The position numbers and the translations under genes are program-made. DNA of 61,030 nt, from positions 1 through 61,030 of the IMG/VR virus record IMGVR_UViG_3300030099_002804. One strand, written 5' to 3'. How positions within the stretch are numbered: the first letter of the stretch is position 1; every line of letters starts with the position of its first letter. The stretch comes from a virus (taxonomy: Duplodnaviria; Caudoviricetes). The notes beneath the pieces are model-generated. The model ran no database searches. It was not told the DNA's origin and saw only the letters and a program-made list of their open reading frames with translations. Of this stretch, positions 8,665-45,900 are shown one piece after another.

Positions 8665-10032
8665 TTACTCCTCATGGACTACTGGTGCGAATAGAGAACC
8701 GATGTAGCCCTCCTTTTCGTCAATTAGATATGCGGCCAAACCTGCGGTGCTGGTAGTGTAACCTGCTCTTGCGTGGTATCTGTCGTGACCTGCAAGGGAT
8801 GGCATCTGTACAATTAGGCATCCGTCTTTTTCAGTTAGGCGTTGGTGGTGAAGGTGTCCGTGGAACCATACTCTATGGTCTGTCTGTCCCCACTGCTTCT
8901 TTGCTTCGTTAGCCATTAGCCCAGCAAGGCTATTGGTCTTTTTGAGTCCGTCACCGTGGGTGAATCCAAGCAGTGTTGAACCGTACACTAGGTAACGGCG
9001 GTTAAAGGAGGATATGGTAATTGTGACATCATCACAACCTTCGTATGCCGCAGATAGGTACATCATTAGTGCGATAGTGGAATGACGGTCGTGATTACCA
9101 GCCATCATTACTACTTCGACAGGTGCGATTTGTCGCATCAAGTCAATGTGTTCTCGGGCTAACTTGCATCCGGTAATAAGGATTTCAGCAGGGGAACCAC
9201 ACATATCTTGCAGTGTGCCTTTTGTGGTGGTGCCTTGGTCGTTATCAACATGGAACCAATCGGAACCAGCACCGACATAGATTTTTTCGGGAGCAGATGG
9301 GATTCTGCTAACGAGGCTTTCGGTCTTTTCCATTAGACGCTTTCGTGCCTCCTCGAAGTTGTATGTCTCGCCTACTTCATCCTCCCAGCCGTGTTTTCCC
9401 CAATGGAAATCGGTAGGGCATACTACTAGAGCGTATGGTGACGGGGCCACAGGTAATTTTAGTTTCGGCACTTTAAATGCGGCTTTTGGTAGGTCTTTGA
9501 GATAGTTTAGTTTCCACTCAAGGTCACGCCACTTAACCGCATCTTCTTCGAGTGCCTTGCGTTCACGCTTGTATATTTCCTGTGCGGCATTGTGTTTGCG
9601 CTGGGATAGCAAGTCCTCAATGTGTTGCTCGGGTTCATCGAGCAGTTGCTCGTTAGATAGCGGGACTGTGGAGTGTGTTACTTTGTGCGCTCTTTTCCAA
9701 GCCAAGAAGTGTTCAACGGGCATATCGTATTTGATTGCCATTTCGGAGGCGGTCAACGGGGTGCCGTCAAAACCGGAGTAGTCACGGAGCATGGCTCGGT
9801 GCTTTTCACCGGACATGCTGATGTCCCCAAAGGTAAGGGCCGTAATGTATGTGTCGGAGGACTCGTCGTAGGAGTATGAATCGTCTTTGACTTCGCTCTC
9901 GTAATTGATTAGGCGCATCTCCCACGCCTTCACTGTTGAGTCGGGGTAGTATTGGTTTAGTAGTCGTGCGTAGCCGATTCTGCTACCGGGGTGTTCATCC
10001 ATGTGCTTTAGTATCGTGTCTTGATGGGACAT
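8665..10032 (-). CDS. calcineurin-like metallophosphoesterase with N-terminal extension
   Basis: Motifs DFHWG, GSDWFH, GNHD, HGD and GHLH in canonical order. Confidence 0.85.
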   Translation of the reverse strand: MSHQDTILKHMDEHPGSRIGYARLLNQYYPDSTVKAWEMRLINYESEVKDDSYSYDESSDTYITALTFGDISMSGEKHRAMLRDYSGFDGTPLTASEMAIKYDMPVEHFLAWKRAHKVTHSTVPLSNEQLLDEPEQHIEDLLSQRKHNAAQEIYKRERKALEEDAVKWRDLEWKLNYLKDLPKAAFKVPKLKLPVAPSPYALVVCPTDFHWGKHGWEDEVGETYNFEEARKRLMEKTESLVSRIPSAPEKIYVGAGSDWFHVDNDQGTTTKGTLQDMCGSPAEILITGCKLAREHIDLMRQIAPVEVVMMAGNHDRHSTIALMMYLSAAYEGCDDVTITISSFNRRYLVYGSTLLGFTHGDGLKKTNSLAGLMANEAKKQWGQTDHRVWFHGHLHHQRLTEKDGCLIVQMPSLAGHDRYHARAGYTTSTAGLAAYLIDEKEGYIGSLFAPVVHEE

Positions 10033-10047
10033 TAGTTGTTGGGTGTA

Positions 10048-10063
10048 CCCGCCACTTTATCAA
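10048..10063 (-). promoter_or_regulatory. class II viral promoter (TTGATAAAGTGGCGGG)
   Basis: Near-identical to the plus-strand motif TTGATATAGTGGCGGG at 24788, and just upstream of the phosphoesterase start. Confidence 0.55.
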
Positions 10064-10195
10064 TGTTTTCCAAAAAAAATTATCAAAAAAACGCATGGTG
10101 CTTGGCTGTCCCTATATACACAGGAGAGCCGATTTTTGGCGGCTCTCGCATTAGTAAAAACAGGGCAGTTTTTCGTGATGCCCAGCACTAGAGAT

Positions 10196-10396
10196 TCAAT
10201 TCCTCAAGTCAAGAATCCACTTTGCAGCGTCTGAAGTGCCCCAGTTATCCGGTAGCATCTCAAACGGTACACAGCACCCAAATCCAAGGTTGGCCTTGGT
10301 TGCTAGTTTCTCTCCTACAATCTTCAGTGTACCACATCTGATACACCTAATCATGTTCGTCTTGTACATCTCTCTCAATTCTTTGTTACTTATCAT
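10196..10396 (-). CDS. small Cys-rich hypothetical protein
   Basis: CIRC motif, GGAGG RBS, abuts the upstream ORF. Confidence 0.5.
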   Translation of the reverse strand: MISNKELREMYKTNMIRCIRCGTLKIVGEKLATKANLGFGCCVPFEMLPDNWGTSDAAKWILDLRN

Positions 10397-10594
10397 TCAA
10401 TTCTCCTCCATCTGAATGAACACATTGTCATCATCACTGATGACGAATAATACGCCACCGTGACAACGGCATCGTGCCCCGTCTTTGTTCTTCTTTACAT
10501 AATTCAGTCCACACATTGAGCAGACTTCGCTTAGTTGCTTGGTTCCTCGCACCATGCTACCCCGTATGCACCTACCCTTATCAATACTGCCCAT
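10397..10594 (-). CDS. small Cys-rich hypothetical protein
   Basis: CSMC...CRC motifs. Confidence 0.5.
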   Translation of the reverse strand: MGSIDKGRCIRGSMVRGTKQLSEVCSMCGLNYVKKNKDGARCRCHGGVLFVISDDDNVFIQMEEN

Positions 10595-10656
10595 GTTTGC
10601 ACCACATAGACCACGATTTCAAGACCTAATCCAAATCACCACGAAATCAGACAATC

Positions 10657-10729
10657 AACATATATCAGTAAGGTACTGCCCGCAAACTCAATAATAGAGA
10701 GAGAAAAAGAAAAGGAGAGAGAGGGGGGA
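10657..10729 (+). repeat. oriented intergenic repeat, copy 1
   Basis: ATATATCAGTAAGGTACTGCCC...CTCAATAA followed by a GA-rich tract. Confidence 0.85.
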
Positions 10730-10780
10730 GCCCCCGCCACCGGCGAACCGGTGACGAGGGCAAATCACTGATTGCTCAGT
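10730..10780 (-). ncRNA. conserved 3' two-hairpin RNA element, copy 1
   Basis: ACTGA-GCAA-TCAGT, then GCCCTCGTCACCGG-TTCG-CCGGTGGCGGGGGC, then a pyrimidine tract. Confidence 0.6.
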
Positions 10781-10958
10781 TACCTAGGATTTCAACCCAT
10801 AGGTTGTTTTTTTGCCAGCAATAGGCACAATAGAACGCCTGTCTAGGTTTTGCGTTCTGTGTGTGTGCTTCTTGGATAGTGGCTAGGTGCTTGTTCTCAT
10901 CACCTACCATTCTCCAATTACATGTCCCACAGTATTCGCAGGTTGTTATTTCAGCCAT
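10776..10958 (-). CDS. small zinc-finger protein
   Basis: CEYC...CAYC, GGAGGTGA RBS, own TATA box (TTTAATA). Confidence 0.7.
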   Translation of the reverse strand: MAEITTCEYCGTCNWRMVGDENKHLATIQEAHTQNAKPRQAFYCAYCWQKNNLWVEILGN

Positions 10959-11054
10959 TTATTTCTCACCTCCTGTTGTTCCTCAACAATCTATCCGAGG
11001 AGTAGTCCCCTATTAAACCCAGCGATTGAGCAAATCAGACATGCGGTAGTTATG

Positions 11055-11117
11055 ATATATCAGTAAGGTACTGCCCCCGGCTCAGTAATAGAGAGAAAAA
11101 AAGAAAGAAAAGAGAGA
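11055..11117 (+). repeat. oriented intergenic repeat, copy 2
   Basis: ATATATCAGTAAGGTACTGCCC (22 nt identical to copy 1)...CTCAGTAA followed by a GA tract. Confidence 0.85.
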
Positions 11118-11168
11118 GCCCCCCAGTGGAGCGAACTCCACTGAAGGGCGGCTTACTGATTATTCAGT
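11118..11168 (-). ncRNA. conserved 3' two-hairpin RNA element, copy 2
   Basis: ACTGA-ATAA-TCAGT, then GCCCTTCAGTGGAG-TTCG-CTCCACTGGGGGGC. Confidence 0.6.
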
Positions 11169-11195
11169 TATACAATACTGCAACAATTGATTGAA

Positions 11196-11438
11196 TCAAT
11201 TGTAACTCTTCACTAGATGATGAGCGAACTTAGGCCACTTGTACACAAACTCAAATGGGTTTGTGTTCCAAATGTACAATTGCTCCTTCTGATAACCGCC
11301 GTAGCAGTGCTGAGGGTACATTGAAGCCCACTCAGCCAAAAATTGTTCATCTGTCATGTTACTCCTAACAACCGCCAACGCCTTGAACGCTGATTGGCTG
11401 ATATTGTAATCGCCGTTGGTCCATATCCTGTATGTCAT
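11196..11438 (-). CDS. hypothetical protein
   Basis: GGAGGTGA RBS before MTYRIW, upstream TATATATA box. Confidence 0.65.
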   Translation of the reverse strand: MTYRIWTNGDYNISQSAFKALAVVRSNMTDEQFLAEWASMYPQHCYGGYQKEQLYIWNTNPFEFVYKWPKFAHHLVKSYN

Positions 11439-11607
11439 ATTTTTCACCTCCTTGTTTGACGCTTCGTTCATTCTATTATCCACCATACGCTTCGCCTCTT
11501 TGACTCACTTCATCCTCTATCTGATTTCCGTATTGGTCATACTAACAGGTATGTTGTATATATACCCTTCTCGAAATCATCACCAAAATGCTCATTCAAT
11601 CAATACA

Positions 11608-11682
11608 ATATATGTTAGTAATACTTCCCTCTCGTCTTAGTAAGAAAAAAAAAGAGAGAGAGAGAGTTAATCGTGGTACTGC
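11608..11682 (+). repeat. oriented intergenic repeat, copy 3 (diverged)
   Basis: ATATGTTAGTAATACTTCCC...CTTAGTAAG, GA tract, then GTACTGC. Confidence 0.7.
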
Positions 11683-11743
11683 GTGGCATTTTTCATTTTC
11701 CACGGTTGGCCGTGAAATCCAGCCGTGGGTTTATGTACTACCA

Positions 11744-11910
11744 CCTGCTCGTCGGTGTATATCCGAGCAACGATAACCGGTAATCAGCAATCACACGAAA
11801 GTTGGTTTGACAGGTTGTTTGGAACGAAACTGGTAACAGAACGGGGAGCAACCCCGATGTCAAAAGCAGGATGTTTCTCCCATGAGTCCAGCGAGACAAT
11901 TCATGGAGAC
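11744..11910 (+). ncRNA. structured 5' leader
   Basis: Stems CCTGCT/AGCAGG, TTTGACA/TGTCAAA, CGGGG/CCCCG, and TCTCCCATGA/TCATGGAGA covering the RBS. Confidence 0.4.
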
Positions 11911-12604
11911 GAACATGATACACGAAAAGGAGGAAACAGTTGGAGTGATTCGACGCACCATCAACGCATTGTTGTTGGCCGTCATTCACATGTTGGGCTA
12001 CCAACAACCAACTGCGACCTTAGCAAGCAAGATGAAACAACTGGACCACCTATACACTGAGTATTTGGACCACTGTGCAACCGACTGGGTTGGATTCAAT
12101 CCACCCAGCAAGCGAACACAGACCATCCTCAGAAACAAGTGGATTAAAGTGATGAACCAACTTGCCAAGCAAATACTGAAGGAACTGGTCAAAATTGACT
12201 GTTCCTACTGTGGACTTGGTAATGTGTCTGAAAGTGACAAATGCGCCGGTCGAAAGGTCGGCAGTGGATTTGAAATCCAAGCATGGCAGAAGTCACCAAA
12301 GGCACCTAGAGTTTGGGTACTTGACACCGAAGAACACTGGATTAGACCTTGGGAGTCAGAATCCGGCGACTGGGAGTTTGTCGAGGAATCCGGGCACTGG
12401 GAATGGGGTAAATTGTACCTACCAGCACAGGGCAACTGTGCAGTAGGTCACGGACCCTACGAAGGTTCAGATAGACCAATGCACAACGCATTGGCTCATC
12501 TTGACAGTGAATCAGCACAACTGGTGCTGAATCACTTGGAATACGGCGACATTCCTAGCCGAATCCGAGTGGCACTAAACGAACTGGTTTCAGACCGAGT
12601 TTGA
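11882..12604 (+). CDS. hypothetical Trp-rich protein (likely start 11915)
   Basis: 240 aa ORF with own TATA box and terminator, CSYC motif. Confidence 0.7.
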   Translation: MSPARQFMETNMIHEKEETVGVIRRTINALLLAVIHMLGYQQPTATLASKMKQLDHLYTEYLDHCATDWVGFNPPSKRTQTILRNKWIKVMNQLAKQILKELVKIDCSYCGLGNVSESDKCAGRKVGSGFEIQAWQKSPKAPRVWVLDTEEHWIRPWESESGDWEFVEESGHWEWGKLYLPAQGNCAVGHGPYEGSDRPMHNALAHLDSESAQLVLNHLEYGDIPSRIRVALNELVSDRV

Positions 12605-12605
12605 T

Positions 12606-12725
12606 ACTGAGTAATCAGTTATTTGCCCTCCCCAGCACTTCGGTGCTGGGGAGTGGCTCCCTTTCGGGGGTGTCCTAGGCGAAGAAGCCGGGGCACCCCC
12701 ACCCCTTTTTATTATTTTTTTTATT
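12606..12725 (+). terminator. conserved 3' two-hairpin RNA element copy 3, extra GC hairpin and T tract
   Basis: ACTGA-GTAA-TCAGT, CTCCCCAGCAC-TTCG-GTGCTGGGGAG, GGGGGTGTCC/GGGCACCCCC, then poly-T. Confidence 0.7.
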
Positions 12726-12727
12726 TG

Positions 12728-12797
12728 AACATATATTAGTAAGGGTACTGCCCGCACTCAGTAAAAAAAAGAGAGAGAGAGAGAGAAGAGAGAGAGG
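12728..12797 (+). repeat. oriented intergenic repeat, copy 4
   Basis: AACATATATTAGTAAGGGTACTGCCCGCACTCAGTAA followed by (GA)n. Confidence 0.85.
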
Positions 12798-12811
12798 CGG
12801 CTTTCATTCTC

Positions 12812-13252
12812 TCAATTTACTCCCTCCAAATACATATCATAGGTGAAAGTCTGAGGGGGAAACACTCCATGCTTATCTAAGTATAGAGCCTGTTCTGCCG
12901 TTTCAATGTGCATGATACGCTTCAAGGTGTTAAGTCCTAGAATATCACAAATCTCGCCTTGAATCCTTGATGCTTTCAATTCACCCTCTAAAGTGAACGG
13001 GCAGTCATATTTTAGGTGTATAGTGTCATGTAATGCCCTAAATAGGATATTGAAGGGCGCACTGCCCCATATAGTTGAATGACTCTCTCCGCCCCATATC
13101 GGCATGGGTAACATTTTGTTATATGCCTCAATGACGGGCTCAAATCCCCTATCCTCAATTGTGACATAGAAGGGGTACACCCCGACATAATCACAGACCT
13201 TGAGAAGTCCGTTTTGTACTGCTTGCGTTAGTTCGGTAGGTATTGCGACCAT
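12812..13252 (-). CDS. hypothetical protein with FRALHDxxH...GE motif (possibly metal-binding or zincin-like)
   Basis: FRALHDTIHL...FTLEGE. Upstream CGCTGGGTT+TATA element is shared with the 10776 unit. Confidence 0.6.
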   Translation of the reverse strand: MVAIPTELTQAVQNGLLKVCDYVGVYPFYVTIEDRGFEPVIEAYNKMLPMPIWGGESHSTIWGSAPFNILFRALHDTIHLKYDCPFTLEGELKASRIQGEICDILGLNTLKRIMHIETAEQALYLDKHGVFPPQTFTYDMYLEGVN

Positions 13253-13313
13253 GTACCCCCTACGATACCCCACTATATGAACCCAGCGTTTCAGCAAATA
13301 GTCAATGAATCAA

Positions 13314-13382
13314 GTATATATCAGTAAGACTTCACTTATCACGGCTCAGTAAGAGAGAGAGAGAAAAGAGAGAGAGAGAGAA
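13314..13382 (+). repeat. oriented intergenic repeat, copy 5
   Basis: TATATATCAGTAAGAC...GGCTCAGTAAG followed by (GA)n. Confidence 0.8.
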
Positions 13383-13383
13383 C

Positions 13384-13416
13384 CCTATCATGAACGGCTT
13401 TACCTATCATGAACGG
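13384..13416. repeat. 14 bp direct repeat CCTATCATGAACGG x2 (possible operator)
   Basis: Exact copies at 13384 and 13403, upstream of the amidoligase unit promoter. Confidence 0.7.
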
Positions 13417-13514
13417 GCCGCCGACCCCCTCTCGGCGGGTGTTTTTTGACCCCCTTGAGTATTTAAAGAACCGAACATGTTCGTTAATTCTTTATACCAA
13501 CAGGGGGTATTCCG

Positions 13515-13900
13515 AGATTGCCCGCAAGGGCCGAAGCAATCGGACGCACATCCGAATTGAGGGAACCCCACTCAACCAAGCGCAAGTGCGGGGGGTTGTC
13601 GCTCTCAACACAAGTCCTACGGTGAAAATCCGTAGGCACCCTAGGTATCGCCACAGGCCTCAGTCGCTAGGGATAGGAGGACATGATTACTCACCATGTC
13701 ACCATGTCAATTCGAGCGTTTAGCCTTGGCATGATACGGTCTGAAGGACCACGCTATGTTCCAACATGGGACCTCATGAATCCTCCTTCGTTCTTTTTTC
13801 AAATCCTATTCACCTAGATTGAGGAGATGCAATTCAATGATTCAATCAATCCAACTCCCTGTCCGACGATATACAAAGTCGGGTCACAGGCGAGGAGCGT
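13515..13900 (+). ncRNA. long, densely structured leader or ncRNA
   Basis: At least eight consecutive hairpins after a TTTATA box at ~13492. Confidence 0.5.
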
Positions 13901-13909
13901 GAAATGTAA

Positions 13910-16432
13910 ATGCAAACAACAACAACAACAGGAAATATACTGTTGGACCTAGTTGTGGTATTGTTGGCACTATTGCCAATTATGATGCCACTTCTTGCTG
14001 TCCTAACAGTACTGAGAAATGAACGAATGAACATGCGAATAGGTCTTGAGATTGAAGCAATCAAGAAGGCCCACATTCGTGAGTCACCACATGAGAAGAT
14101 GGCACACTGGATAATGAAGTGTGATGAGAAGATGTTGAAACTAATGTCCTCTCGAACACGGAAAACCATTCGTGCCCTCAAAGTCTCATTCCGTGGCTAC
14201 ACTCACGAAGTCATGAGCGAAACGAAGATTGTCACAGACTCATCATTGAGTCGTGGCGGCTTTGAGATTGTGTCACCCCCACTAATCGGGCGTGGCGTGG
14301 TTATGTCGTGGATTAGTCGGATGATGTCACACCTTCGAGGCGTGGCTGAAGTCGATAGGTCATGCGGCCTTCATGTCCATGTGGGTCTGAAGGACTACGG
14401 CGCAAGGGCAAACCCCGTCGAGTTAGGCTTTACCGAGCCTTCAGACAACCTTAGTCCCGAGGACTACGCCAAGGCCGTTACAGGCCGTGTGGCGTGGGCT
14501 TACGGGTACTTTCAACATGCAATCAATCTGATTGTTAGCCCAAGCCGCCGTGACGGTGAATGGAGCCGTAATGTCTCCTACATCAGCCAACAATATCGCA
14601 ACCCAAGCGAAGTACGCTTCGCCCAGCGAAAGTGGAATGATGAACATGGAATGTATGTCCGAGAATGGCATACCGAAACCGACCCCGCAAAGGTTGGCAT
14701 GGTATTCTATGACCGACTGTACGAAGGTAATCCCGACTACGGTGACTCTCGCTATCAGTGCGTAAATCCTCAATCACTACCGAAATACGGTACGATTGAG
14801 TTTAGAGCGCACCAAGGCACCACAAACGCAACCAAGATTCAGAATTGGGTGCAATTTTTGCACCTACTGGTCAGCCGTTGTGCGAGTAACTATTGGACCG
14901 ACATCACCAATTTCCGTGGTGACTCAATCCATGACCTATTCACTTGGCTTGGTTTGGCAGACGATGACCCACTCTATGTGGCTATGGTTCGCCGTATCAA
15001 GGCACTGAATGGAAACAACCCTAGTGTATTCCGTAATGACCCAATCTTGGCACACAACGCACTTTTCAAGGAGAGCGTAGTTTGCTCCCGATGTGGTTCG
15101 GCTTCTTGTGACTCAGATGAAGTGTGTGGCACCAACTACACACAAGATTTGATGGAGGAAACCGAGGCTCACTTTTTGGACTTGGATAGGGCATGCGATA
15201 CATGTGGCACATTACTTCGGGAAACCGAAGCACACATGCGCTATGACTACGGCGACCATCATGAAGCACACTGCCCTAACTGCGGCGATATGAGAGTGTT
15301 CAACGCTATGGGAGGAGTTATCCTCTCAGTCATGCTTGGCACCCTACCACTCGCACTGGTTATTGTAGGATGTGGCATTGGTGCCATACATGCGGCGGCT
15401 AAGACCTTCAAGGCCAAGCGATTGTCAACTAGACTCTTCAAGGCATTATCAGCCCGAGGCAAACAAGCCTCGGGCTTTGCCTTTGAGAATGGAAAGGGAG
15501 TGTACTATGTGAAAGCACCACACTCCTCAATCGCTATGGCTCACCATGTCCCGAAGCAACTACGCAAGCAAACTCAGTGGAGTATGTTTCACACCCGCTT
15601 CGCAACTCATGGTGCCAACAACAAGGCAAACGCTCACCCTCACTTTGGTCGCAAGGCTAAGGTAACGCTAGTACACAACGGCGTCGTACACAACCACGAC
15701 GATGTATGGATGGCATTGGGCGAGAAGCCTACTGGCCCTGTGGACTCACAGGCCGTAGCACAGTGCCTAGAAGTTGGTGGTATCGAGAAGGTAGTCGAGT
15801 TATGCAAGGGCTCAATGTCCTTGATTTGGTCTGATAATCGTGACCCACAAGGTACCCTCAAGTGCTGGACTAATGGAGGCAATCCATTGGTTATGGGTCG
15901 CATAGACGACGCAAGCAACGGCCCCGTAGTAATTGCCTCAACTGAGGCACTACTCAAGGAGGGATGTGGCAAGCGACTCAAGACACATTGGGATGCAACC
16001 ATAGGGCGTGAATACACAATCTCGCCTACCGGTAGCATCAGCAAGCGTGACATCGAGGGCAGTGAAGCAACCGCCGGGGTCGTCTATGATTGGCGCACCT
16101 ACAAGGTCGATGACTACTACTACACCTACGGCGCAAACTACTCGACTACCAAGACCAAGAAGCGACACCTACCTTATCGCATCAAGCAAATTGCGAAGAA
16201 GGAGTTAGAGCGCCTTGGTAGTTGGGAGCCAATCGAAGGCAAATGGGATGGCTTCGACCTTCATACCTTCAGTGGCATCCACGCCGCTAAATGGGATAAG
16301 GATGGCAAGCCCTTGACCTACGCACTACCGCAGTACATCAACCCGATGCACTATGATAGTGACCTTGAGGAGATACTCATGGGGTCGCACAGACCCGATG
16401 AGTTGGACTCATGCACATATGAGGCCCCTTGA
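13910..16432 (+). CDS. amidoligase (COOH-NH2 ligase, GS fold) fused to class II (Ntn) glutamine amidotransferase
   Basis: Ligase motifs GLEIE, DSSL, FEIVSPPL, SCGLHVHVG, TIEFRAHQGT. GATase motifs CGI, RG..ASG, HTRFATHG, NAHPH, HNGVV, VDS. Confidence 0.85.
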   Translation: MQTTTTTGNILLDLVVVLLALLPIMMPLLAVLTVLRNERMNMRIGLEIEAIKKAHIRESPHEKMAHWIMKCDEKMLKLMSSRTRKTIRALKVSFRGYTHEVMSETKIVTDSSLSRGGFEIVSPPLIGRGVVMSWISRMMSHLRGVAEVDRSCGLHVHVGLKDYGARANPVELGFTEPSDNLSPEDYAKAVTGRVAWAYGYFQHAINLIVSPSRRDGEWSRNVSYISQQYRNPSEVRFAQRKWNDEHGMYVREWHTETDPAKVGMVFYDRLYEGNPDYGDSRYQCVNPQSLPKYGTIEFRAHQGTTNATKIQNWVQFLHLLVSRCASNYWTDITNFRGDSIHDLFTWLGLADDDPLYVAMVRRIKALNGNNPSVFRNDPILAHNALFKESVVCSRCGSASCDSDEVCGTNYTQDLMEETEAHFLDLDRACDTCGTLLRETEAHMRYDYGDHHEAHCPNCGDMRVFNAMGGVILSVMLGTLPLALVIVGCGIGAIHAAAKTFKAKRLSTRLFKALSARGKQASGFAFENGKGVYYVKAPHSSIAMAHHVPKQLRKQTQWSMFHTRFATHGANNKANAHPHFGRKAKVTLVHNGVVHNHDDVWMALGEKPTGPVDSQAVAQCLEVGGIEKVVELCKGSMSLIWSDNRDPQGTLKCWTNGGNPLVMGRIDDASNGPVVIASTEALLKEGCGKRLKTHWDATIGREYTISPTGSISKRDIEGSEATAGVVYDWRTYKVDDYYYTYGANYSTTKTKKRHLPYRIKQIAKKELERLGSWEPIEGKWDGFDLHTFSGIHAAKWDKDGKPLTYALPQYINPMHYDSDLEEILMGSHRPDELDSCTYEAP

Positions 16433-16484
16433 GCCAAGTGTTCATTCGTGACAACACAAGATACGACACACAGATGTCGAAGCC

Positions 16485-16710
16485 GGATTGTGGGGGGCCT
16501 CGGCCCCCCGCAATCCTCCCCCCTAGCATTACAACACTCCTCACCTATCACAATCACACTTACCACGCTTCTCTTAGAGGCGAGCCGCCTAGACAAGTGC
16601 GGGGTATCAAATCGGTCTAGCCACTGGAGTTTTCATCTCCTTTTCCAGTGGTTTTGGGATGTCGAGGCCCGTTCATAGCCTCGGCATCCCTCCTACTCCC
16701 TTGGAGGCAT
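16485..16710 (+). ncRNA. structured intergenic RNA
   Basis: Long hairpins at 16485-16516, 16589-16620, 16620-16651 and 16656-16690. Confidence 0.45.
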
Positions 16711-16714
16711 TACC

Positions 16715-16954
16715 ATGAGCGATAAACCGACCATGAAGTATTGTCCCCACATCGAATGTGGTGGTAAATTACAACCGCATTCATTTGACTCGGCAACGGG
16801 TTGCTTGGACTGTGATGGCCCATGCTCCCCCCGCCGTGTTCAGATGTGGCGAGACAATTTGAAGCAACCAACCGAGGAACCCGAACCTAGACTGGTCTAT
16901 CAAGGACCAGTTACCAAGGAGGTTTGGGAGGGCTTGTGCTACTGGAAACAGTGA
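16715..16954 (+). CDS. small Cys-rich protein
   Basis: CPHIEC...CLDCDGPC, GGAGG RBS. Confidence 0.6.
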   Translation: MSDKPTMKYCPHIECGGKLQPHSFDSATGCLDCDGPCSPRRVQMWRDNLKQPTEEPEPRLVYQGPVTKEVWEGLCYWKQ

Positions 16955-17051
16955 ATGCACAGTCCACTCGAATAGAGGATGGCGGTGGCCTACAACCCAC
17001 CCCTTCAGATGGCATGAGGTAGCCAACCCGGACTGAGTGACAAACCGGCAA

Positions 17052-17130
17052 ACACACAAATGGGGTCGCCCTTCGGGGCGGCTCCAAATATGTGTGTTTT
17101 TTTTATTTTTTTTATTTTTTTTTATTTTTA
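17052..17130 (+). terminator. UUCG hairpin and long T tract terminator
   Basis: GGGGTCGCCC-TTCG-GGGCGGCTCC nested in ACACAC/GTGTGT, then ~30 nt of T. Confidence 0.75.
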
Positions 17131-17136
17131 ATGTAC

Positions 17137-17430
17137 ATTAGTAAGACTATAGTCTTACTGCATAAAAGAGAGAGAGAGAAAGTTGAGAGAGAAAGAGAGA
17201 GAAGTAAAGAGAGAAAGGGGGAGAGAGAGCATTAGTAAGACGAGAGAGAGAGGCGCATGTGAAAGAGAGAAGAGTTAAATAGTGGAGAGAGAAGTCTTAC
17301 TTAGTAAGACGAATGAATTGGCGAGAGAGTCGCTATGAAAAAGCCTTAGTAAGACGAAAAGAAGGAAAAGTATATAGCGAGAGAGAGAGGCTAAACGGTG
17401 TACTGCGAGCCTGTCGAGAGAATAGAGAGC
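17137..17430 (+). repeat. oriented repeat copy 6, expanded cluster of TTAGTAAGAC boxes in a GA-rich tract
   Basis: TTAGTAAGAC at 17138, 17232, 17301 and 17346. Palindromes AGTAAGACTATAGTCTTACT and GTCTTACT-T-AGTAAGAC. GTACTGC at 17400. Confidence 0.8.
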
Positions 17431-17669
17431 CAAAAAAACTGTCAATGCGTATGGAATGGAGTAGGTAAATCAGGTGTTTCCAGCAACACCTACTGTTATC
17501 TGCTACCACCTACATTCAAGTAACAACTCCGGCAAAAATCACAATATCCGGCAGTGCCAGCCGACACGCCCACAACGCCAGCCGAAACACGCACCGCTAA
17601 ACGCACCCCTGCTCGGCCATTCACCTATCAACATTCATATACTCACCCCCGATTCTTGCCACCACCAAC

Positions 17670-17695
17670 TTGATATACCGGCGGCCCCATATTAG
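17670..17695 (+). promoter_or_regulatory. class I (early) viral promoter
   Basis: TTGATATA-CCGGCGGCCCC-ATAT. Confidence 0.65.
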
Positions 17696-17715
17696 AACCA
17701 ACGGAGGCAACCAAC

Positions 17716-17871
17716 ATGGTAACGAAACAACAACTACAAAACATGCTTGACGAAACGATTGAAGAATTACAGAAGCCGAATGCGGCTATGCAGTTTCAGC
17801 GATATAGGCAACTGATATTCCACAGGGCCAACTTGGAAATGAAACTGAGGGACATGGGGGAATCACAATGA
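17716..17871 (+). CDS. small helical protein (51 aa, not in ORF track), paralog of 18068..18226
   Basis: MVTKQQLQNMLDETIEELQ, GGAGG RBS. Confidence 0.65.
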   Translation: MVTKQQLQNMLDETIEELQKPNAAMQFQRYRQLIFHRANLEMKLRDMGESQ

Positions 17872-18071
17872 ACCAAGAAGCAGATATGAAACGAAGCACA
17901 CAAAGGATGCTGGAAATTATACGAACCTCGGGGCGCAAGAAGTTTAGTTACACTGATGTTGATTGCGTGGGATGCGGTGAAAAAATCAGCATTTACAACT
18001 ACCACCTTTGGAGGCAGACACCTTGCTCATGCGAGGACAAGAAGGCACTTTTCGTGGAGGAATCACAATGA
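17868..18071 (+). CDS. small zinc-finger protein
   Basis: CVGC...CSC, ATGA overlaps on both sides. Confidence 0.6.
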   Translation: MNQEADMKRSTQRMLEIIRTSGRKKFSYTDVDCVGCGEKISIYNYHLWRQTPCSCEDKKALFVEESQ

Positions 18072-18226
18072 GCCAACTAAAGCAACTACAACTACTGCTT
18101 GACGAAACGAATGAGCGATTGCAGAACACAAGTGCGCCATACCAAAGCCACGAATACCTGCAACTATTAGCATACAGGTGTGAATTGTGGCGCAAAATAG
18201 ATGACCTAACGGAGGGATTGGCATGA
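18068..18226 (+). CDS. small helical protein, paralog of 17716..17871
   Basis: MSQLKQLQLLLDETNERLQ. Confidence 0.65.
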   Translation: MSQLKQLQLLLDETNERLQNTSAPYQSHEYLQLLAYRCELWRKIDDLTEGLA

Positions 18227-18333
18227 AAATTAGAGTGCCTACAAAGATTTGGTGCGCTTGGCTGGTCTTGACCCTGCCAATCGCCGTAATCAACCTACTG
18301 CTCTATATCACAGGTGTCGTGGAGGTCGGCAAC

Positions 18334-18357
18334 TATAAATAGGGGCGGCCCCATATA
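18334..18357 (+). promoter_or_regulatory. class I viral promoter
   Basis: TATAAATA-GGGGCGGCCCC-ATAT. Confidence 0.75.
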
Positions 18358-18385
18358 CAGACTGAAGCAACCGGAGAGGAGCAAC

Positions 18386-18550
18386 ATGGAATACAACAGA
18401 AAAAACAACGGACAATTCGACACCCCACAAAAGGTGTCATACCAATGCGAAGAATGCAATCACCAGCATATCGGATTTGAAATACATGGAATGAGAATTA
18501 CATGCCCCGAGTGTGGGTTCTCATTTGTCGTGGGGGTTGACGACCAATAA
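18386..18550 (+). CDS. small zinc-ribbon protein
   Basis: CEEC...CPECG, GAGGAG RBS. Confidence 0.65.
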   Translation: MEYNRKNNGQFDTPQKVSYQCEECNHQHIGFEIHGMRITCPECGFSFVVGVDDQ

Positions 18551-18792: not shown

Positions 18793-19284
18793 ATGAGAAC
18801 ACAACGAGAATACGGAATTGAAGCAAGAATACTACTGAAAAAACTACAAGAGGCAGGTTGCCAATTTATCAAGACCAGCGACTCGTATGGCGATAGTTAC
18901 TACGACATACCATGCGAGGGACTGAGCATTGGTAAAATCGCATACAACCTATGGAATCTTGAGGACTCAATGCTGATTATCAGAAACCCCGATGGTAAAA
19001 AAGCATGGGCACGATTCGTTTTCGGCAACGGCTGGGGCGAATTGATGGCTGATTACTCAGTGAACCTGCTCGGCAAATCTTTGCCATACGAAGAGGCCCG
19101 CCAGCGTGAGCGAGATGTAGGACTATTCGACTACTACGATTGGAGAATCAACGATGTTCTCAACTTCTTTGGAGTCACAAAAAAACTGACAGACATCATT
19201 GATGAAGCGGTGAATATAAATAGGGGGAGCCCCCATATAGAAAATGAGGCCGACTCAGAAACCGGACACACACAGGAGGAATAA
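18793..19284 (+). CDS. hypothetical protein
   Basis: 163 aa ORF in the early operon. Confidence 0.6.
   Translation: MRTQREYGIEARILLKKLQEAGCQFIKTSDSYGDSYYDIPCEGLSIGKIAYNLWNLEDSMLIIRNPDGKKAWARFVFGNGWGELMADYSVNLLGKSLPYEEARQRERDVGLFDYYDWRINDVLNFFGVTKKLTDIIDEAVNINRGSPHIENEADSETGHTQEE
19215..19238 (+). promoter_or_regulatory. class I viral promoter (inside the 3' end of the upstream ORF)
   Basis: TATAAATA-GGGGGAGCCCCC-ATAT. Confidence 0.7.
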
Positions 19285-21264: not shown

Positions 21265-21288
21265 TATAAGTAGGGGCAACCCCTATAT
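21265..21288 (+). promoter_or_regulatory. class I viral promoter
   Basis: TATAAGTA-GGGGCAACCCC-TATAT. Confidence 0.7.
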
Positions 21289-21308
21289 CAAATCGGAGCA
21301 GTGATACA

Positions 21309-22642: not shown

Positions 22643-22666
22643 TTAAATACCGGCAACCCCTATAAC
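22643..22666 (+). promoter_or_regulatory. class I viral promoter
   Basis: TTAAATA-CCGGCAACCCC-TATA. Confidence 0.65.
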
Positions 22667-22682
22667 AAAATGAGGATTTGAT

Positions 22683-23410: not shown

Positions 23411-23710
23411 ATGGTAGGGACATTGTTACACATACCAGTGGATGCACCAGCAAAGACCATAGTCACTATGCCTATGGGCGCAACACTAGATGATGCGAAT
23501 TACTTTGCGGCAGACCTGTTGGATGCTGAGTACCCACTAGAGATGCACAAGATTGATTCGGAAATCAAGGTGTTCACGCTGGTTCAAGACGGAACATACG
23601 ACTACAATCGAGGACTGACTATTGCATTGGATGAGTTACTGGGAATCAAGGTAGCACTTGAGGGGCCAGTAGTTATCTGCATGATGCCGCCGGAGATGTT
23701 AAGTAGGTGA
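23411..23710 (+). CDS. hypothetical protein
   Basis: GGAGG RBS. Confidence 0.55.
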   Translation: MVGTLLHIPVDAPAKTIVTMPMGATLDDANYFAADLLDAEYPLEMHKIDSEIKVFTLVQDGTYDYNRGLTIALDELLGIKVALEGPVVICMMPPEMLSR

Positions 23711-23722
23711 AACCCCTATATC
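23699..23722 (+). promoter_or_regulatory. class I viral promoter (diverged)
   Basis: TTAAGTA-GGTGAAACCCC-TATAT. Confidence 0.55.
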
Positions 23723-23740
23723 AGTTTGGAGAGGAACGAC

Positions 23741-25255: not shown

Positions 25256-26021
25256 ACCATTAGTGGTGAATCTATCCGACATTGACTTTGTGACTACTAA
25301 GCCATACACTCGCAACGCTAGAGGCGAGTTAGTACAGATACCGTACATAGAGATTAAGGTCAACAAAAAGTTACCTAAGTTTATGATGATAGGCAAAGGT
25401 CTGATGTGGTCGTACTTAGATGCACTGTTTGAAGATGACCCGCTACCTAGAGGCCCGGTCAACGAGGACATATTCGCACCGAAGGTGGATGGTCCGTCAC
25501 TGTATTCGCTACTCAACTCATTTACCCAAGAGGTAAAGGATGAGGGAACAGACTACATTGTGATGTATCATAACGATTTTGTAGTCACATACTTTGAGTC
25601 ATTCAATGCCTCGGTGTTGTCGGACATCAATGTTTTGGCTGAGGGGCTGGCGCAACTGTGCCCAAAGCCTGTCGAAAAAAGACCATTCGTGTATAAGTCT
25701 AGTAAAGTTACCATTAGACCATCACTTATGATGCCTATTAACGGGTGCTTGCTCGAAGTAATTGACATCGGGCAACGCTGGTATTACCGACTGACCGCAC
25801 AGGCTGGCAATAATGTGCTTATATCGCTGATACAACCTACTACCACCAAGAAGAATGACAAGGGTGAAACATTTGCTAAACTACAATCGCTGATTGGTAT
25901 AGCATCAAGAGTGAATGTGTTGCATATTGACGGCCACCACTTAGGAACACCTATGACTAACAAGGGTATGAGGACTAATGAGATTGATGCGATTCTATAC
26001 AGAAGGGGGTTGACTATTTAA
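25239..26021 (+). CDS. hypothetical protein
   Basis: ~260 aa ORF, GGAGG RBS. Confidence 0.65.
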   Translation: MSQLGEPLVVNLSDIDFVTTKPYTRNARGELVQIPYIEIKVNKKLPKFMMIGKGLMWSYLDALFEDDPLPRGPVNEDIFAPKVDGPSLYSLLNSFTQEVKDEGTDYIVMYHNDFVVTYFESFNASVLSDINVLAEGLAQLCPKPVEKRPFVYKSSKVTIRPSLMMPINGCLLEVIDIGQRWYYRLTAQAGNNVLISLIQPTTTKKNDKGETFAKLQSLIGIASRVNVLHIDGHHLGTPMTNKGMRTNEIDAILYRRGLTI

Positions 26022-26028
26022 CTTTGAC

Positions 26029-26273
26029 TGAATTAATTTTATTATTTCAGTAACTACAAAATTAATTAAATGGGGCACTGCTCGCATGTTGGCCGAATTA
26101 ATTTATTTCTTCAAAGGCATTTATACAAAGGGGCGTAATACTATACTACTAACCTATGATATATACTTAATATAATGTTAAATGTTCTAAGGGAAATAAA
26201 TTAATTAGCGCAATATCCACGCAGTAATTCGTTTATTTAATTTTACGATTACAAAATTAATAGAATTAATTCA
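26029..26273. repeat. AT-rich ~245 bp imperfect inverted repeat, candidate replication origin
   Basis: Arms 26029-26123 and 26179-26273 are reverse complements with mismatches, rich in AATTAATT, upstream of the MCM-like operon. Confidence 0.65.
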
Positions 26274-26301
26274 ACAACAGTTAAATACTGACGACGGATT
26301 A

Positions 26302-42204: not shown

Positions 42205-42933
42205 ATGCTAGTGGTGGATGACCGAGAGAATGACCTTTTGATTCACAAACTATATGCGTCTATGGGCCGCCATGATGAAGGCGGTCATGTTAAAGTCAAG
42301 CGGCTACCTTCTGCCGATTATGTTATCGGGGAGATAGGGATAGAGGCTAAGGAGATAAATGACTTGTATCATTCTATCATGGGTCACGGTCGCTCTCGCA
42401 CAATCATTGGGCAGTTGGTGGATTTACAGGAGTCATTTGAGCGACCTATGTTAGTAGTCTATGGCACCAAGTTGAAGCCGTATCTGCCGGGCAGAAGGCC
42501 CAATCGTGCTGAGATTGCTAAAGAGATGAAAAAGATGCAAGCAGTAATCAAGAAGTTTAAGCAAAACTTCGTGATTCAATTCCCAAACATTCAATTCATG
42601 GAGTTATCAAGTATGGATGATATGGTGGATTGGTTATCATCTGTGCATCACAATCTGCGTATTAGACAGAAGCCTATATCTGAACCTGCCGAAAGAACCC
42701 GCCGAAGCAATCGCAAGGTGGACTTGCGTGTTAGAGTCCTTGCCGCAATTGACGGCATCTCGGAGAGAGCAGCCCATGATTTGTTAACCGAGTTTGGCTC
42801 TATTCCACGCCTGTTGCGCTCTCGCACAAGCCAGCGAAAACTCATGGAGATAGAGGGTATAGGTCGTAAAAGAGCCAAGGCTATTTTATCCCTGCGTGAA
42901 CGCTACCCCGACCAGCCCGACCGTCACTCGTAA
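42205..42933 (+). CDS. ERCC4/XPF-family nuclease with HhH2 domain
   Basis: VDDRE, ADY, IEAK...DL..SI, tandem HhH (IDGIS, IEGIG). Confidence 0.88.
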   Translation: MLVVDDRENDLLIHKLYASMGRHDEGGHVKVKRLPSADYVIGEIGIEAKEINDLYHSIMGHGRSRTIIGQLVDLQESFERPMLVVYGTKLKPYLPGRRPNRAEIAKEMKKMQAVIKKFKQNFVIQFPNIQFMELSSMDDMVDWLSSVHHNLRIRQKPISEPAERTRRSNRKVDLRVRVLAAIDGISERAAHDLLTEFGSIPRLLRSRTSQRKLMEIEGIGRKRAKAILSLRERYPDQPDRHS

Positions 42934-45900
42934 CTCATTTGGTTGGACTGACTATCGCCGGACACAGAACGGCTATCAAACCCTACCTGTATGTTGTGTA
43001 GTGTTACGCTACTGTATTGTGCAGTATCGGGAGATACACCTGCGGCACGACTAATTTTAATCTCGATAGTGTTATTCGGTATATCTAAGCCGTCTAATCC
43101 ACCATTAAATAATGTCACAGAAGAATTGGTACCCACTGCTAAAGTAACAGTTCTATTAGCAGTAGCGCCGGTTTCGACACACTTTACTTCTATATCCAAA
43201 GAAGCAACACCGCTTGCGGCACCTAATGTGTACCTACCCATTATGTTTGCTTGCCTACTGTTGCTATTTTGAGGGACTCTAACCACTGTTGTGAACTCGT
43301 TATACGCTTGGGCCGCATCAGTAGCACCAGCAAAAGACATTCCGTTGCTAGTCATAACTGCGTCACCCGAGGATGGGGTGATGAATGAATCCACACCCTC
43401 AACTCCCGATGTCTTTTTTGGTGCAATCGCTGGCTTCTTTTGACCCAAAACTGCGAAGTTACCACCCAAAACGCTGTCATTGTTGAACTCCATACTACCC
43501 TTAATTTTGTTACTAAGCCCACTACTCAATATGTTACTACTAATAGTCTTGGGTGAGTTACTAGATAAGTTAGTACCATCCACATTAGGCCCGGTACCTA
43601 CCTGTGTTAGTGGATTAAAGTCCACGCCAGTAGTAGTCCCAAACCCAACTCCGCTAGTACCGCTACTATTCCAAGCACCACTAACAGGAGTACCGCCAAA
43701 TCCACCCCAATCAAATGTACCGGAGCCTTGGGGTTTAGATGTATCACCACTGGGCCCGCCCCTACCACTTGTGCCACTACCGGGGGTCTGTGTTCCCCCC
43801 TTGTTAGTTGCTGGCAAAAGCAAAGAAGCGAAGTTCTGAATGCTTCTGCTAACATCTCTCTCTAGTGTTAATTGTACTTGTTGCCTATCGGCACCCCTAG
43901 CAGACCACTGTACCTGCTTGATACCCATAACTTCATTACTTAATTCTAATACCGAGTCCGTGTATGAAACTTGAGTTCCCGGTACAAAGTTTATATCGTC
44001 ACAGATGTGCAAGCGAGGAGCGTACCACTCAGACCTGCGCCCCATATAATTTACTTCAGTCTCATTCCACTTTCTCATCCCAAGAGGGAATAGACTATCT
44101 CCATTTATAGTTGAGTGAGTCGAGCCACCATAAACACTACCATTTGCTAATGTTCCTGTACCACACCTATTCTTTGCTACCGCTAAAAGATAGTCATAAT
44201 TAACTGATAGTACAATTCTTTCAGTGCCATCTCGACCTGTCCAATATGTGCTAGGAATATCTATTTCATAATAACCGTTTGAATCAACCGAAACGCTGGT
44301 GCTACTTCTTGCGCTTGCTACGAAATCTCTATCTGTCCAATCGTAGTCTATTAGTCGCACCCTAAAGACTGGATTTATTGCAGTAGCGGCGTATGAATCA
44401 ATTGTACCGTCACCTACTTCAACAACAAATCTCAGTTTGCCGTCTGCATTTATGTTTGAACCAGCAGGTGTTTTCATTGTTGTTTTTGGCATGTCCCTTG
44501 GTATGTGTACTACCTGCAAAGCATAACTCAAAGATGCCGCACCATACCAATAATACATTATATCATATGTTTTTTGTGTCATAGGGATTATGTAATTAGA
44601 GTTACCATCCCTACCGTTAAGAGCAGACACCATACCGGGGAATAGATTGCCTCCCCATATGCTAGTCCATGCCCACGCTTTATCCTCCACATAAGAACCA
44701 CCTGTGCCATATGTTCTCGGGATGGTTCTTGATTGGTCGGCAATATAACCGTATCTTGCTCCATTAACCATCATGTCATCAAGACCGGACATTCTGTAAC
44801 TATTGTCGAAGTTCAGTATTTGAGCGTCTATTGTCAACGGTGCCCCCTTATTCTTCTCATATTCTGCCTTTGCTACTGCCAGTGCTTCTGCATTCGTAGT
44901 TACAGAAGGCATATTGAGTATCTCCCAGCGTGGAGTTTCGCCCAAAGTGGGGGTAGGGTAGTCAACAAATGACCCACCAGCACCATAAAACACCCTAACA
45001 TTGGTGATTTGTTTGTTGGACTGAGTGTTGAGGGTGGAAACCCTAACATTATCTCTATTAAGAGCCAAGTTCATATCATAGTTTGGTCTGTATGAGGGCT
45101 TAGAGTCACGCCCCATCAACCATGAGAATACCTGTCTAACTCCATTAGTTCCTCCTAAACCAGCAAGTGATTGTGAACTTGAGTATATTGTAGTTATTGT
45201 AGTGTTTCTGCAATCATTTACGCCGCCGAAATCATCAACCGAATTAGTCAATCTCCACCTACCAAAAGAACCCGACCCTGCTACTGATGTAGTGTTGGGT
45301 ATGGTAAAAGTATCATTAGCAGGTACCGCAGTGATTACTTCAGTCTTAGTTTTTCCTAATAGGCTGATTCTTTCACTATCTATTACTGTAACACTGTCGC
45401 CTACGGACAAGCCGTGTGGTACTCCTGTGGTAAAGGTGGATGAACCACTACTAGGGGCGGTTATCGCCGTGATTATCCCTCCCCTACCAGTGGTGTTACA
45501 GTCAGTAAATACTGTTGCCATATCCCTTGTGATTGGTACTGTGCTAATATCGTGCATACCGTATAGTCTTGATTGGCTTATCCAATTCTTAGTTAGACAA
45601 TCTAAGTACGACATTCGCAACTTTTCACTATCCCACCAAGTACCACTTGCTTTGTTTTCAATAAACCCGTTAAGTGCCATAATAAGGCGCATAGGAAACA
45701 CATTACCTAACCCACCATAAACAAGAGCGTCTGTGTATGAGTTTTGGTTGTCGGGGTTTAGTGAAATACCTATCTCCGCTTCGTTATTAGGTATTGTTAT
45801 ACTACCAGTAGCACCGGTGTATGTTAAATAAAATGCAGCGTTAACGCTACCGTAACCCTCCCCATTCCATTCGCCAGCAGTAGTGGTGTTTTTTACAGGC

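Follow-up and report, generated by a model that had tools for sequence, protein, structure and literature searches.

A clade-wide two-hairpin RNA module behind small genes of marine tailed viruses, a probable transcript 3'-end element

The genome of an uncultured tailed virus, available as IMG/VR record IMGVR_UViG_3300030099_002804 and called here the window (the whole stretch analysed, positions 1 to 61,030), carries four copies of an intergenic module formed by two consecutive hairpins. These are a short upstream hairpin (HP1) and, usually 5 nucleotides (nt) further on, a GC-rich hairpin (HP2) with a stem of 14 base pairs (bp) and a UUCG-type loop. This is a real RNA module, present across the clade to which the virus belongs and apparently not described before. 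From the perspective of its function, it is probably the 3'-end hairpin of the transcript, working as a terminator and/or as an exonuclease barrier with HP1 as an auxiliary upstream hairpin, and located in a cassette boundary similar to those known as PeSL in T4-type phages.

Structure and conservation of the module

Copies 1 to 3 present one layout, namely ACTGA-N4-TCAGT, a 5-nt spacer and an HP2 that opens with GCCCT and is capped by TTCG, with inner stem sequences that differ and yet remain paired. Copies 1 and 2 are located on the - strand. In copy 1, HP2 (10730-10761) forms 14 bp, two of them G-U, below a UUCG loop (65.1 bits), and the 5' arm of HP1 (10767-10780; ACTGA-GCAA-TCAGT) contains the TGA stop of gene 10776-10958. 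Copy 2 includes an HP2 of the same build (11118-11149; 14 bp, two G-U pairs, UUCG loop; 76.8 bits), an HP1 with the sequence ACTGA-ATAA-TCAGT (11155-11168) and an extra 9-bp hairpin, HP0 (11183-11203), which spans the TGA stop of gene 11196-11438. On the + strand, HP1 of copy 3 (12606-12619; ACTGA-GTAA-TCAGT) begins 2 nt past the TGA stop of gene 11882-12604, and its HP2 (12625-12657; 53.3 bits) combines 14 bp and a UUCG loop with a 1-nt bulge and no G-U pair. Directly behind copy 3, folding predicts a canonical terminator (12666-12725, + strand), in which a third GC-rich hairpin (12666-12700) is followed by T5 and T8 runs. An earlier sequence-only reading had placed these three copies on the strand of the preceding gene, and their coordinates and layout were confirmed. 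Its description of mismatches restricted to G-U applies to copies 1 and 2 but not to the bulged copy 3, and it overlooked a fourth copy (16461-16522, + strand), which is outside the seed of the covariance model that detects it (41.8 bits, E 7.7e-9). HP1 of copy 4 (16464-16479; CGACA-CACAGA-TGTCG) lies 31 nt past the stop of the amidoligase-GATase gene 13910-16432, and its HP2 (16485-16516; 14 bp, CUCG loop) leads into a C-rich, G-poor tail without a T run, the leader of the next gene.

A chance origin of copies 1 to 3 is excluded by the count of their 15-letter pattern, with three matches in the genome and none for the backwards control, and by their sense-strand folds (-35.2, -31.3 and -64.0 kcal/mol for copies 1, 2 and 3; z -5.0, -6.2 and -7.8), which were equalled by 0 of 200 shuffles in each case. 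The genes that precede them are mutually unrelated (best pairwise blastp E = 0.36), as had been claimed from the sequence. When the orthologous copy 3 of the closest relative, L057, is compared with that of the window, HP2 is identical, and HP1 differs but is still paired.

Relatives were gathered with the neighbouring exonuclease as bait, which gave at least 223 related viral stretches, 80 of which were kept; the window and these 80 loci constitute the 81 sources analysed (935 kb, both strands). A covariance model, R1, was seeded from seven copies of identical geometry and produced 91 matches, spread over 42 of the 81 sources, at a threshold of E<=0.01; the same threshold yielded none in 443,388 bases of unrelated DNA, most of it chosen for carrying the HP1 pattern. 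In the model-fitted alignment, which has 84 distinct rows, pairing is seen in 97.1% of 1529 cells, compared with 53.4% after shuffling and 45-54% with slid partners, and changes on both sides are seen at all 19 base pairs. RNAalifold independently predicts the same two helices. G-U cells outnumber A-C cells in HP2 by 140 to 8, which indicates that the structure is read on the mRNA strand. All these data bear out the selection on sense-strand RNA structure that had been proposed from the window alone.

The same geometry emerges without a model. In a census of all perfect hairpins in the 81 sources, G-U pairs being allowed, stems with a 4-nt loop numbered 9 at 13 bp, 98 at 14 bp and 5 at 15 bp, and the loop was TTCG in 56 of the 98. 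The 14-bp stems collapse to 87 unique hairpins. In 46 of these, another hairpin of 5 bp or more ends 3-7 nt upstream, in the position of HP1; shuffles gave 6.1 +/- 2.3, and the downstream side gave 4 of 87. An uninterrupted 14-bp stem with a 4-nt loop is present in 74 of the 84 unique copies, bulged variants making up another 7. Their loops are UUCG (63 copies), CUCG (7) or UGCG (4), closed by a C-G pair in 54 of the 84. The ends of the helix are equally defined, with a G-C pair at the foot in 82 of 83 rows and flanking letters that are never able to pair (0 of 82 rows) and are pyrimidine/pyrimidine in 81 of the 82. The spacer measures 5 nt in 75 of the 84 copies, according to the model-fitted alignment, and its sequence is alike within lineages despite differing stems, for instance TACAAC in L076 and L077. 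HP1 is the more variable element: its stem ranges from 4 to 8 bp, its loop from 1 to 20 nt among the 60 rows with all five pairs aligned (3-11 nt in a free search), and sequence, stem and loop vary even within single genomes. Within both L059 and L063, HP1 sequences are diverse and still paired.

The absence of a known RNA family had also been anticipated. An E-value scan of positions 9500-18500 against Rfam 15 returned only two weak unrelated matches and nothing over the four copies, and no description of the module was found in a literature search. Two other approaches to relatives were abandoned. The exact 15-letter pattern occurs in 53 stretches of viral contigs, none of which showed a UUCG hairpin on folding, so that they were regarded as chance matches; a 240-aa neighbour protein used as bait recovered zero relatives.

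Position behind genes and cassette turnover

The position of the module was evaluated in 79 copies by looking for a same-strand open reading frame (ORF) of at least 60 codons that ended between 45 nt upstream of the module and 12 nt inside it. Such an ORF precedes 67 of the 79; when the module is read in the other direction the count is 17 of 79, and at random places the share is 14%, in keeping with the earlier claim that the motif turns with gene orientation. The distance from stop codon to HP1 is usually 22-27 nt, and in window copies 1 and 3 the stop lies in HP1 or right at it. A small hairpin lies across the stop codon of 35 out of 62 genes that bear a module, whereas the share among 1643 other stops is 29%. 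The 24 nt that follow HP2 are rich in T (0.38-0.52) and C (0.26-0.42) and poor in G (0.01-0.13) across the 79 copies, and in 43 of them a U run follows directly (at least five T in the first 8 nt). Two further roles were considered and rejected. A special function in connection with the stop codon could be suspected, as TGA precedes most copies, but TGA is the commonest stop genome-wide (39 of the 58 listed ORFs). The virion RNA polymerase of phage N4 uses hairpin promoters, and a role of this kind was considered for HP1; however, a 2308-aa ORF of the window matched no RNA polymerase, the module follows genes rather than preceding them, and the G-U bias fits the gene strand.

In the subgroup of the window, a (CT)n tract comes after HP2; it is succeeded by a pair of TTACTGA/TTACTAA words spaced about 22 nt and then by TATAT, and the next Shine-Dalgarno sequence and start codon are located 60-130 nt past this downstream repeat. 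The cassette partner of copy 1 (10660-10729, - strand) has (CT)n, TTATTGA/TTACTGA about 22 nt apart and TATAT, upstream of gene 10397-10594. That of copy 2 (11054-11117, - strand) has (CT)n, TTACTGA-N15-TTACTGA and TATAT, upstream of gene 10776-10958. Both partners are promoter- or operator-like in sequence and could act as such. Altogether there are five copies of the repeat (10660-10729, 11054-11117, 11608-11666, 12731-12797 and 13315-13381), all in one genomic orientation regardless of the direction of the neighbouring gene. On the + strand the repeat reads ATATAT, two YAGTAA words about 22 nt apart and a (GA)n tract; taken on the - strand, four copies are upstream of a - strand gene, and the one at 12731-12797 faces a converging gene. 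As the (CT)n tract accompanies TTACTGA at 11608-11666 and 13315-13381 in places with no preceding gene or hairpin, it seems to be part of the downstream repeat. The promoter-like part is not sigma-70-like in a consensus scan, and sigma-70-like promoter matches in 9500-18500 amount to 5, against 11.9 in shuffles.

Comparison of the window with L057 reveals turnover of these cassettes. Whole units of gene and module are present in one genome and absent from the other, and the breakpoints fall in the (CT)n-TTACTGA repeat. Positions 11052-10723 of the window are without counterpart in L057, as are positions 5897-6368 of L057 in the window, each segment being bounded by two repeat copies, and gene 11196-11433 is replaced between the two. 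In three window copies, the stem of HP1 has a core in common with the TTACTGA repeat nearby. In a distant relative, L097, another repeat was observed at 13250-14560 (- strand), where an 8-letter word of its own, CGACTAAT, occurs between genes in about seven direct and then about six inverted copies; both HP1 hairpins of L097 contain this abundant word (the CGACTAA repeat).

Possible function of the module

Cassettes of the PeSL type, in which an early promoter and a terminator stem-loop flank orphan genes and which are shuffled by recombination between repeats, have been described in T4-type phages (Arbiol et al. 2010, PMC2839356; Comeau et al. 2014, PMC4122927), and a similar motif, with a TATA-like box and an inverted repeat, in the haloarchaeal virus HGTV-1 (PMC3950731). 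The likeness is considerable. The elements studied here are also short repeated intergenic units that place a stem-loop beside a promoter-type element (promoter-like in sequence and of putative direction), they border small orphan genes of a variable region, and close relatives differ by insertion, deletion or replacement of cassettes with breakpoints in the repeat. They differ from PeSL in that the stem-loop part is a two-hairpin RNA of fixed build (14 bp, UUCG cap), with a sequence that changes from copy to copy while the geometry is kept, in that the promoter-like part is not sigma-70-like and in that a (CT)n tract lies between the two parts. The extra-stable cap and the C-G loop-closing pair of most copies recall the C(UUCG)G hairpins, exceptionally stable structures first found in phage T4 mRNA (PMC4371310). 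With bacterial intrinsic terminators and 3' stabilising hairpins the module shares its GC-rich stem, its location after the stop codon on the sense strand and the U run that often follows.

Taking these features together, the module is an RNA element on the mRNA strand, and it probably forms the end of transcripts from small orphan genes, each expressed separately, in the variable, 'early-type' region of the window virus and of its whole clade. HP2, with its GC-rich 14-bp helix, G-C foot, UUCG-type cap and pyrimidine flanks, would constitute the 3'-end hairpin of the transcript. Where a U run follows directly it may act as an intrinsic-type terminator, and in front of a CU-rich tail, a C-rich tail or a separate terminator it may serve as a stable barrier that halts 3'-to-5' degradation. 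HP1, a hairpin of 4-8 bp usually 5 nt upstream and kept by compensatory change, would be an auxiliary part that may keep the coding sequence from interfering with the folding of HP2 or serve as a second barrier. The module, (CT)n tract, TTACTGA repeat and TATAT would then form a PeSL-type boundary of terminator and promoter-like element. A terminator or 3'-end stabiliser in PeSL-like cassettes is a simpler reading than the protein-bound protection or processing element suggested by the sequence-only reading.

Several observations weigh against this assignment. Plain terminators normally lack a fixed stem length, a lineage-alike 5-nt spacer and a second hairpin, and here the stem has one exact length and a conserved G-C pair at its foot, with the companion hairpin placed at a set distance. 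The U run is absent from about a quarter of the copies (21 of 79), where the first 8 nt after HP2 contain two T or fewer. In the window, no U run immediately follows HP2 in three of the four copies, a simple terminator scan accepts only copy 2, and the separate canonical terminator behind copy 3 implies that HP2 of this copy is unneeded for termination. The pair counts come from an alignment fitted to the model, whose rows are related paralogues and orthologues, so the cells do not count as independent events. Neither the census, which used no model, nor the HP1 shuffle test is affected by the weakness of model fitting.

The rigid geometry invites the alternative that a dedicated RNA-binding or RNA-processing protein of virus or host reads HP1, the 5-nt spacer and the 14-bp UUCG helix as a unit, measuring the helix, and would cut, protect, sort or anti-terminate early transcripts. 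The sharp spike at exactly 14 bp and a 4-nt loop in the census, the fixing of both helix ends by the foot pair and the pyrimidine flanks, and a spacer of constant length and lineage-alike sequence between stems that differ all point in this direction, as do the retention of HP1 in copy 3 despite a separate terminator and in copy 4 despite the absence of a U run, and the restriction of the module to the viral contig in a bacterial bin that contains a relative. Nevertheless, no candidate protein was identified, the variation of HP1 in sequence, stem and loop within single genomes is hard to square with tight sequence-specific binding, and by strict criteria HP1 is missing from 41 of the 87 unique 14-bp hairpins. 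Common descent, with selection against insertions and deletions in the stem, could freeze the length as well, and pyrimidine-rich flanks cannot extend the helix. Recognition by such a protein is for these reasons considered unlikely. It is likewise doubtful that a 'ruler' element of this kind would define or regulate early mRNA 3' ends in an abundant clade of marine tailed viruses, possibly archaeal ones; if true, it would represent a new class of viral cis-regulatory RNA. RNase III offers a partial analogy, since the processing hairpins of T7-type phages lie between early genes, as the structured elements do here, and leave a protective 3' hairpin. Such sites comprise about two helical turns of double-stranded RNA, usually with an internal loop, in contrast to the module, whose 14-bp helix lacks an internal loop and runs without interruption in 74 of 84 copies.

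In a bacterial host only, the G-poor (CU)n or C-rich tract behind HP2 could instead load Rho, with transcription stopping further downstream and the RNA being trimmed back to HP2. Rho binds to 5'-YC dinucleotides in unstructured RNA that is rich in C and poor in G, and exonucleases then trim the transcripts (PMC6144790), which fits tails that are pyrimidine-rich and nearly G-free for about 24 nt and the CU- or C-rich tracts of window copies 1, 2 and 4. The tracts are, however, only about 25-30 nt long, against the 60-80 nt that the Rho primary site spans according to the same source (PMC6144790), and the occurrence of (CT)n beside the TTACTGA repeat at 11608-11666 and 13315-13381, with no gene or hairpin before it, also speaks against termination by Rho, which is held to be improbable. 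In its favour, an artificial Rho terminator made of polypyrimidine repeats has reportedly been published; against it, archaea are not known to have Rho. Finally, the palindromes might be signals in the DNA, either recombination sites at cassette boundaries or operators bound by a protein. Gain, loss and replacement of cassettes take place at these boundaries, and the HP1 stems share the TTACTGA core in the window and contain the CGACTAA repeat in L097. The predominance of G-U over A-C cells and the UUCG loops (63 of 84) instead indicate RNA on one strand; the breakpoints are in the (CT)n-TTACTGA repeat and not in the hairpins; the HP1 sequences of L059 and L063 are diverse, unlike that repeat and still paired; and no integrase family was found among the 40 larger ORFs scanned, a subset of all ORFs. 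A signal in the DNA is therefore very improbable, and a 3'-end hairpin within PeSL-like cassettes is retained as the probable explanation.

From a broader perspective, the module adds a well-supported structured RNA motif to an uncultured, widespread group of marine viruses and indicates that PeSL-like cassette shuffling exists outside T4-type phages. Its rigid geometry makes it well suited to clean tests of how the 3' ends of mRNAs are set in viruses of this kind. It could also be used as a marker of early-gene cassette boundaries and, once 3' ends are mapped, perhaps for the assignment of the host domain.

Host and genomic surroundings

An archaeal host had been assumed in the sequence-only reading, and this was not established. 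Haloarchaeal tailed viruses are among the best matches of PolB and TerL, but at only about 24% identity, and a 61,226-bp contig, L137, with an exonuclease 61% identical, is binned in a metagenome-assembled genome of Opitutales and is probably a whole relative of the window virus. In many relatives a U run directly follows HP2, as in bacterial intrinsic terminators; in archaea, hairpin-dependent formation of 3' ends is not the rule. All three matches of model R1 in the Opitutales bin are on the viral contig, with none elsewhere in the bin. The idea of a terminator of host type was discarded, as only 1 of 151 Opitutales genomes had model matches and these were different 13-bp GC hairpins without tblastx likeness to the window; in five Opitutales genomes a loose pattern, with pairing judged by eye, matched about as often as its backwards control. 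The Poseidoniales-associated 'Vyasavirus' group has phosphoesterase, amidoligase and GATase genes in common with the window virus and is said, in the account of it in PMC11706807, to lack a DNA polymerase.

The window corresponds to a complete genome, classed as linear in the 61,030-bp IMG/VR record and with a CheckV completeness estimate of 100%. A phage collection contained no close cultured relative. The terminase, portal and tail genes of this tailed virus are on the - strand, and a replication block with a family B DNA polymerase, clamp loader, nucleases and methyltransferase is on the + strand. Between the two blocks there is a region of small genes (about 10-17.5 kb) that holds all four module copies, within 10.7-16.5 kb. 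The region is adjoined by the phosphoesterase-type exonuclease gene (8665-10032, - strand) and by the amidoligase-GATase fusion gene (13910-16432, + strand). Genes 10776-10958, 11196-11438 and 11882-12604 matched no PHROG or Pfam family, and a tRNA search of the window gave zero genes. The 2308-aa ORF (42924-49850, - strand) adjoins a tape-measure-like gene and belongs to no Pfam or PHROG family.

Three further intergenic features were observed. The stretch 17090-17400, inside 600 bp of non-coding sequence ahead of a long + strand operon, presents an A/T-rich run (17095-17130) and then, amid GA-rich tracts, four or more TTAGTAAGAC words, of which two are arranged in palindromic pairs; it could function as an origin or a regulatory hub. 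Small hairpins of a second intercistronic family, with the form TA-GGGG-loop-CCCC-TATA, are located between + strand genes at 19217-19248, 21267-21298, 22644-22675 and 23700-23731, just 5' of the next ribosome-binding site. Lastly, between two + strand ORFs there is an inverted repeat of 95 nt and 74% complementarity (26015-26109 and 26193-26287), with 83 nt separating its arms.

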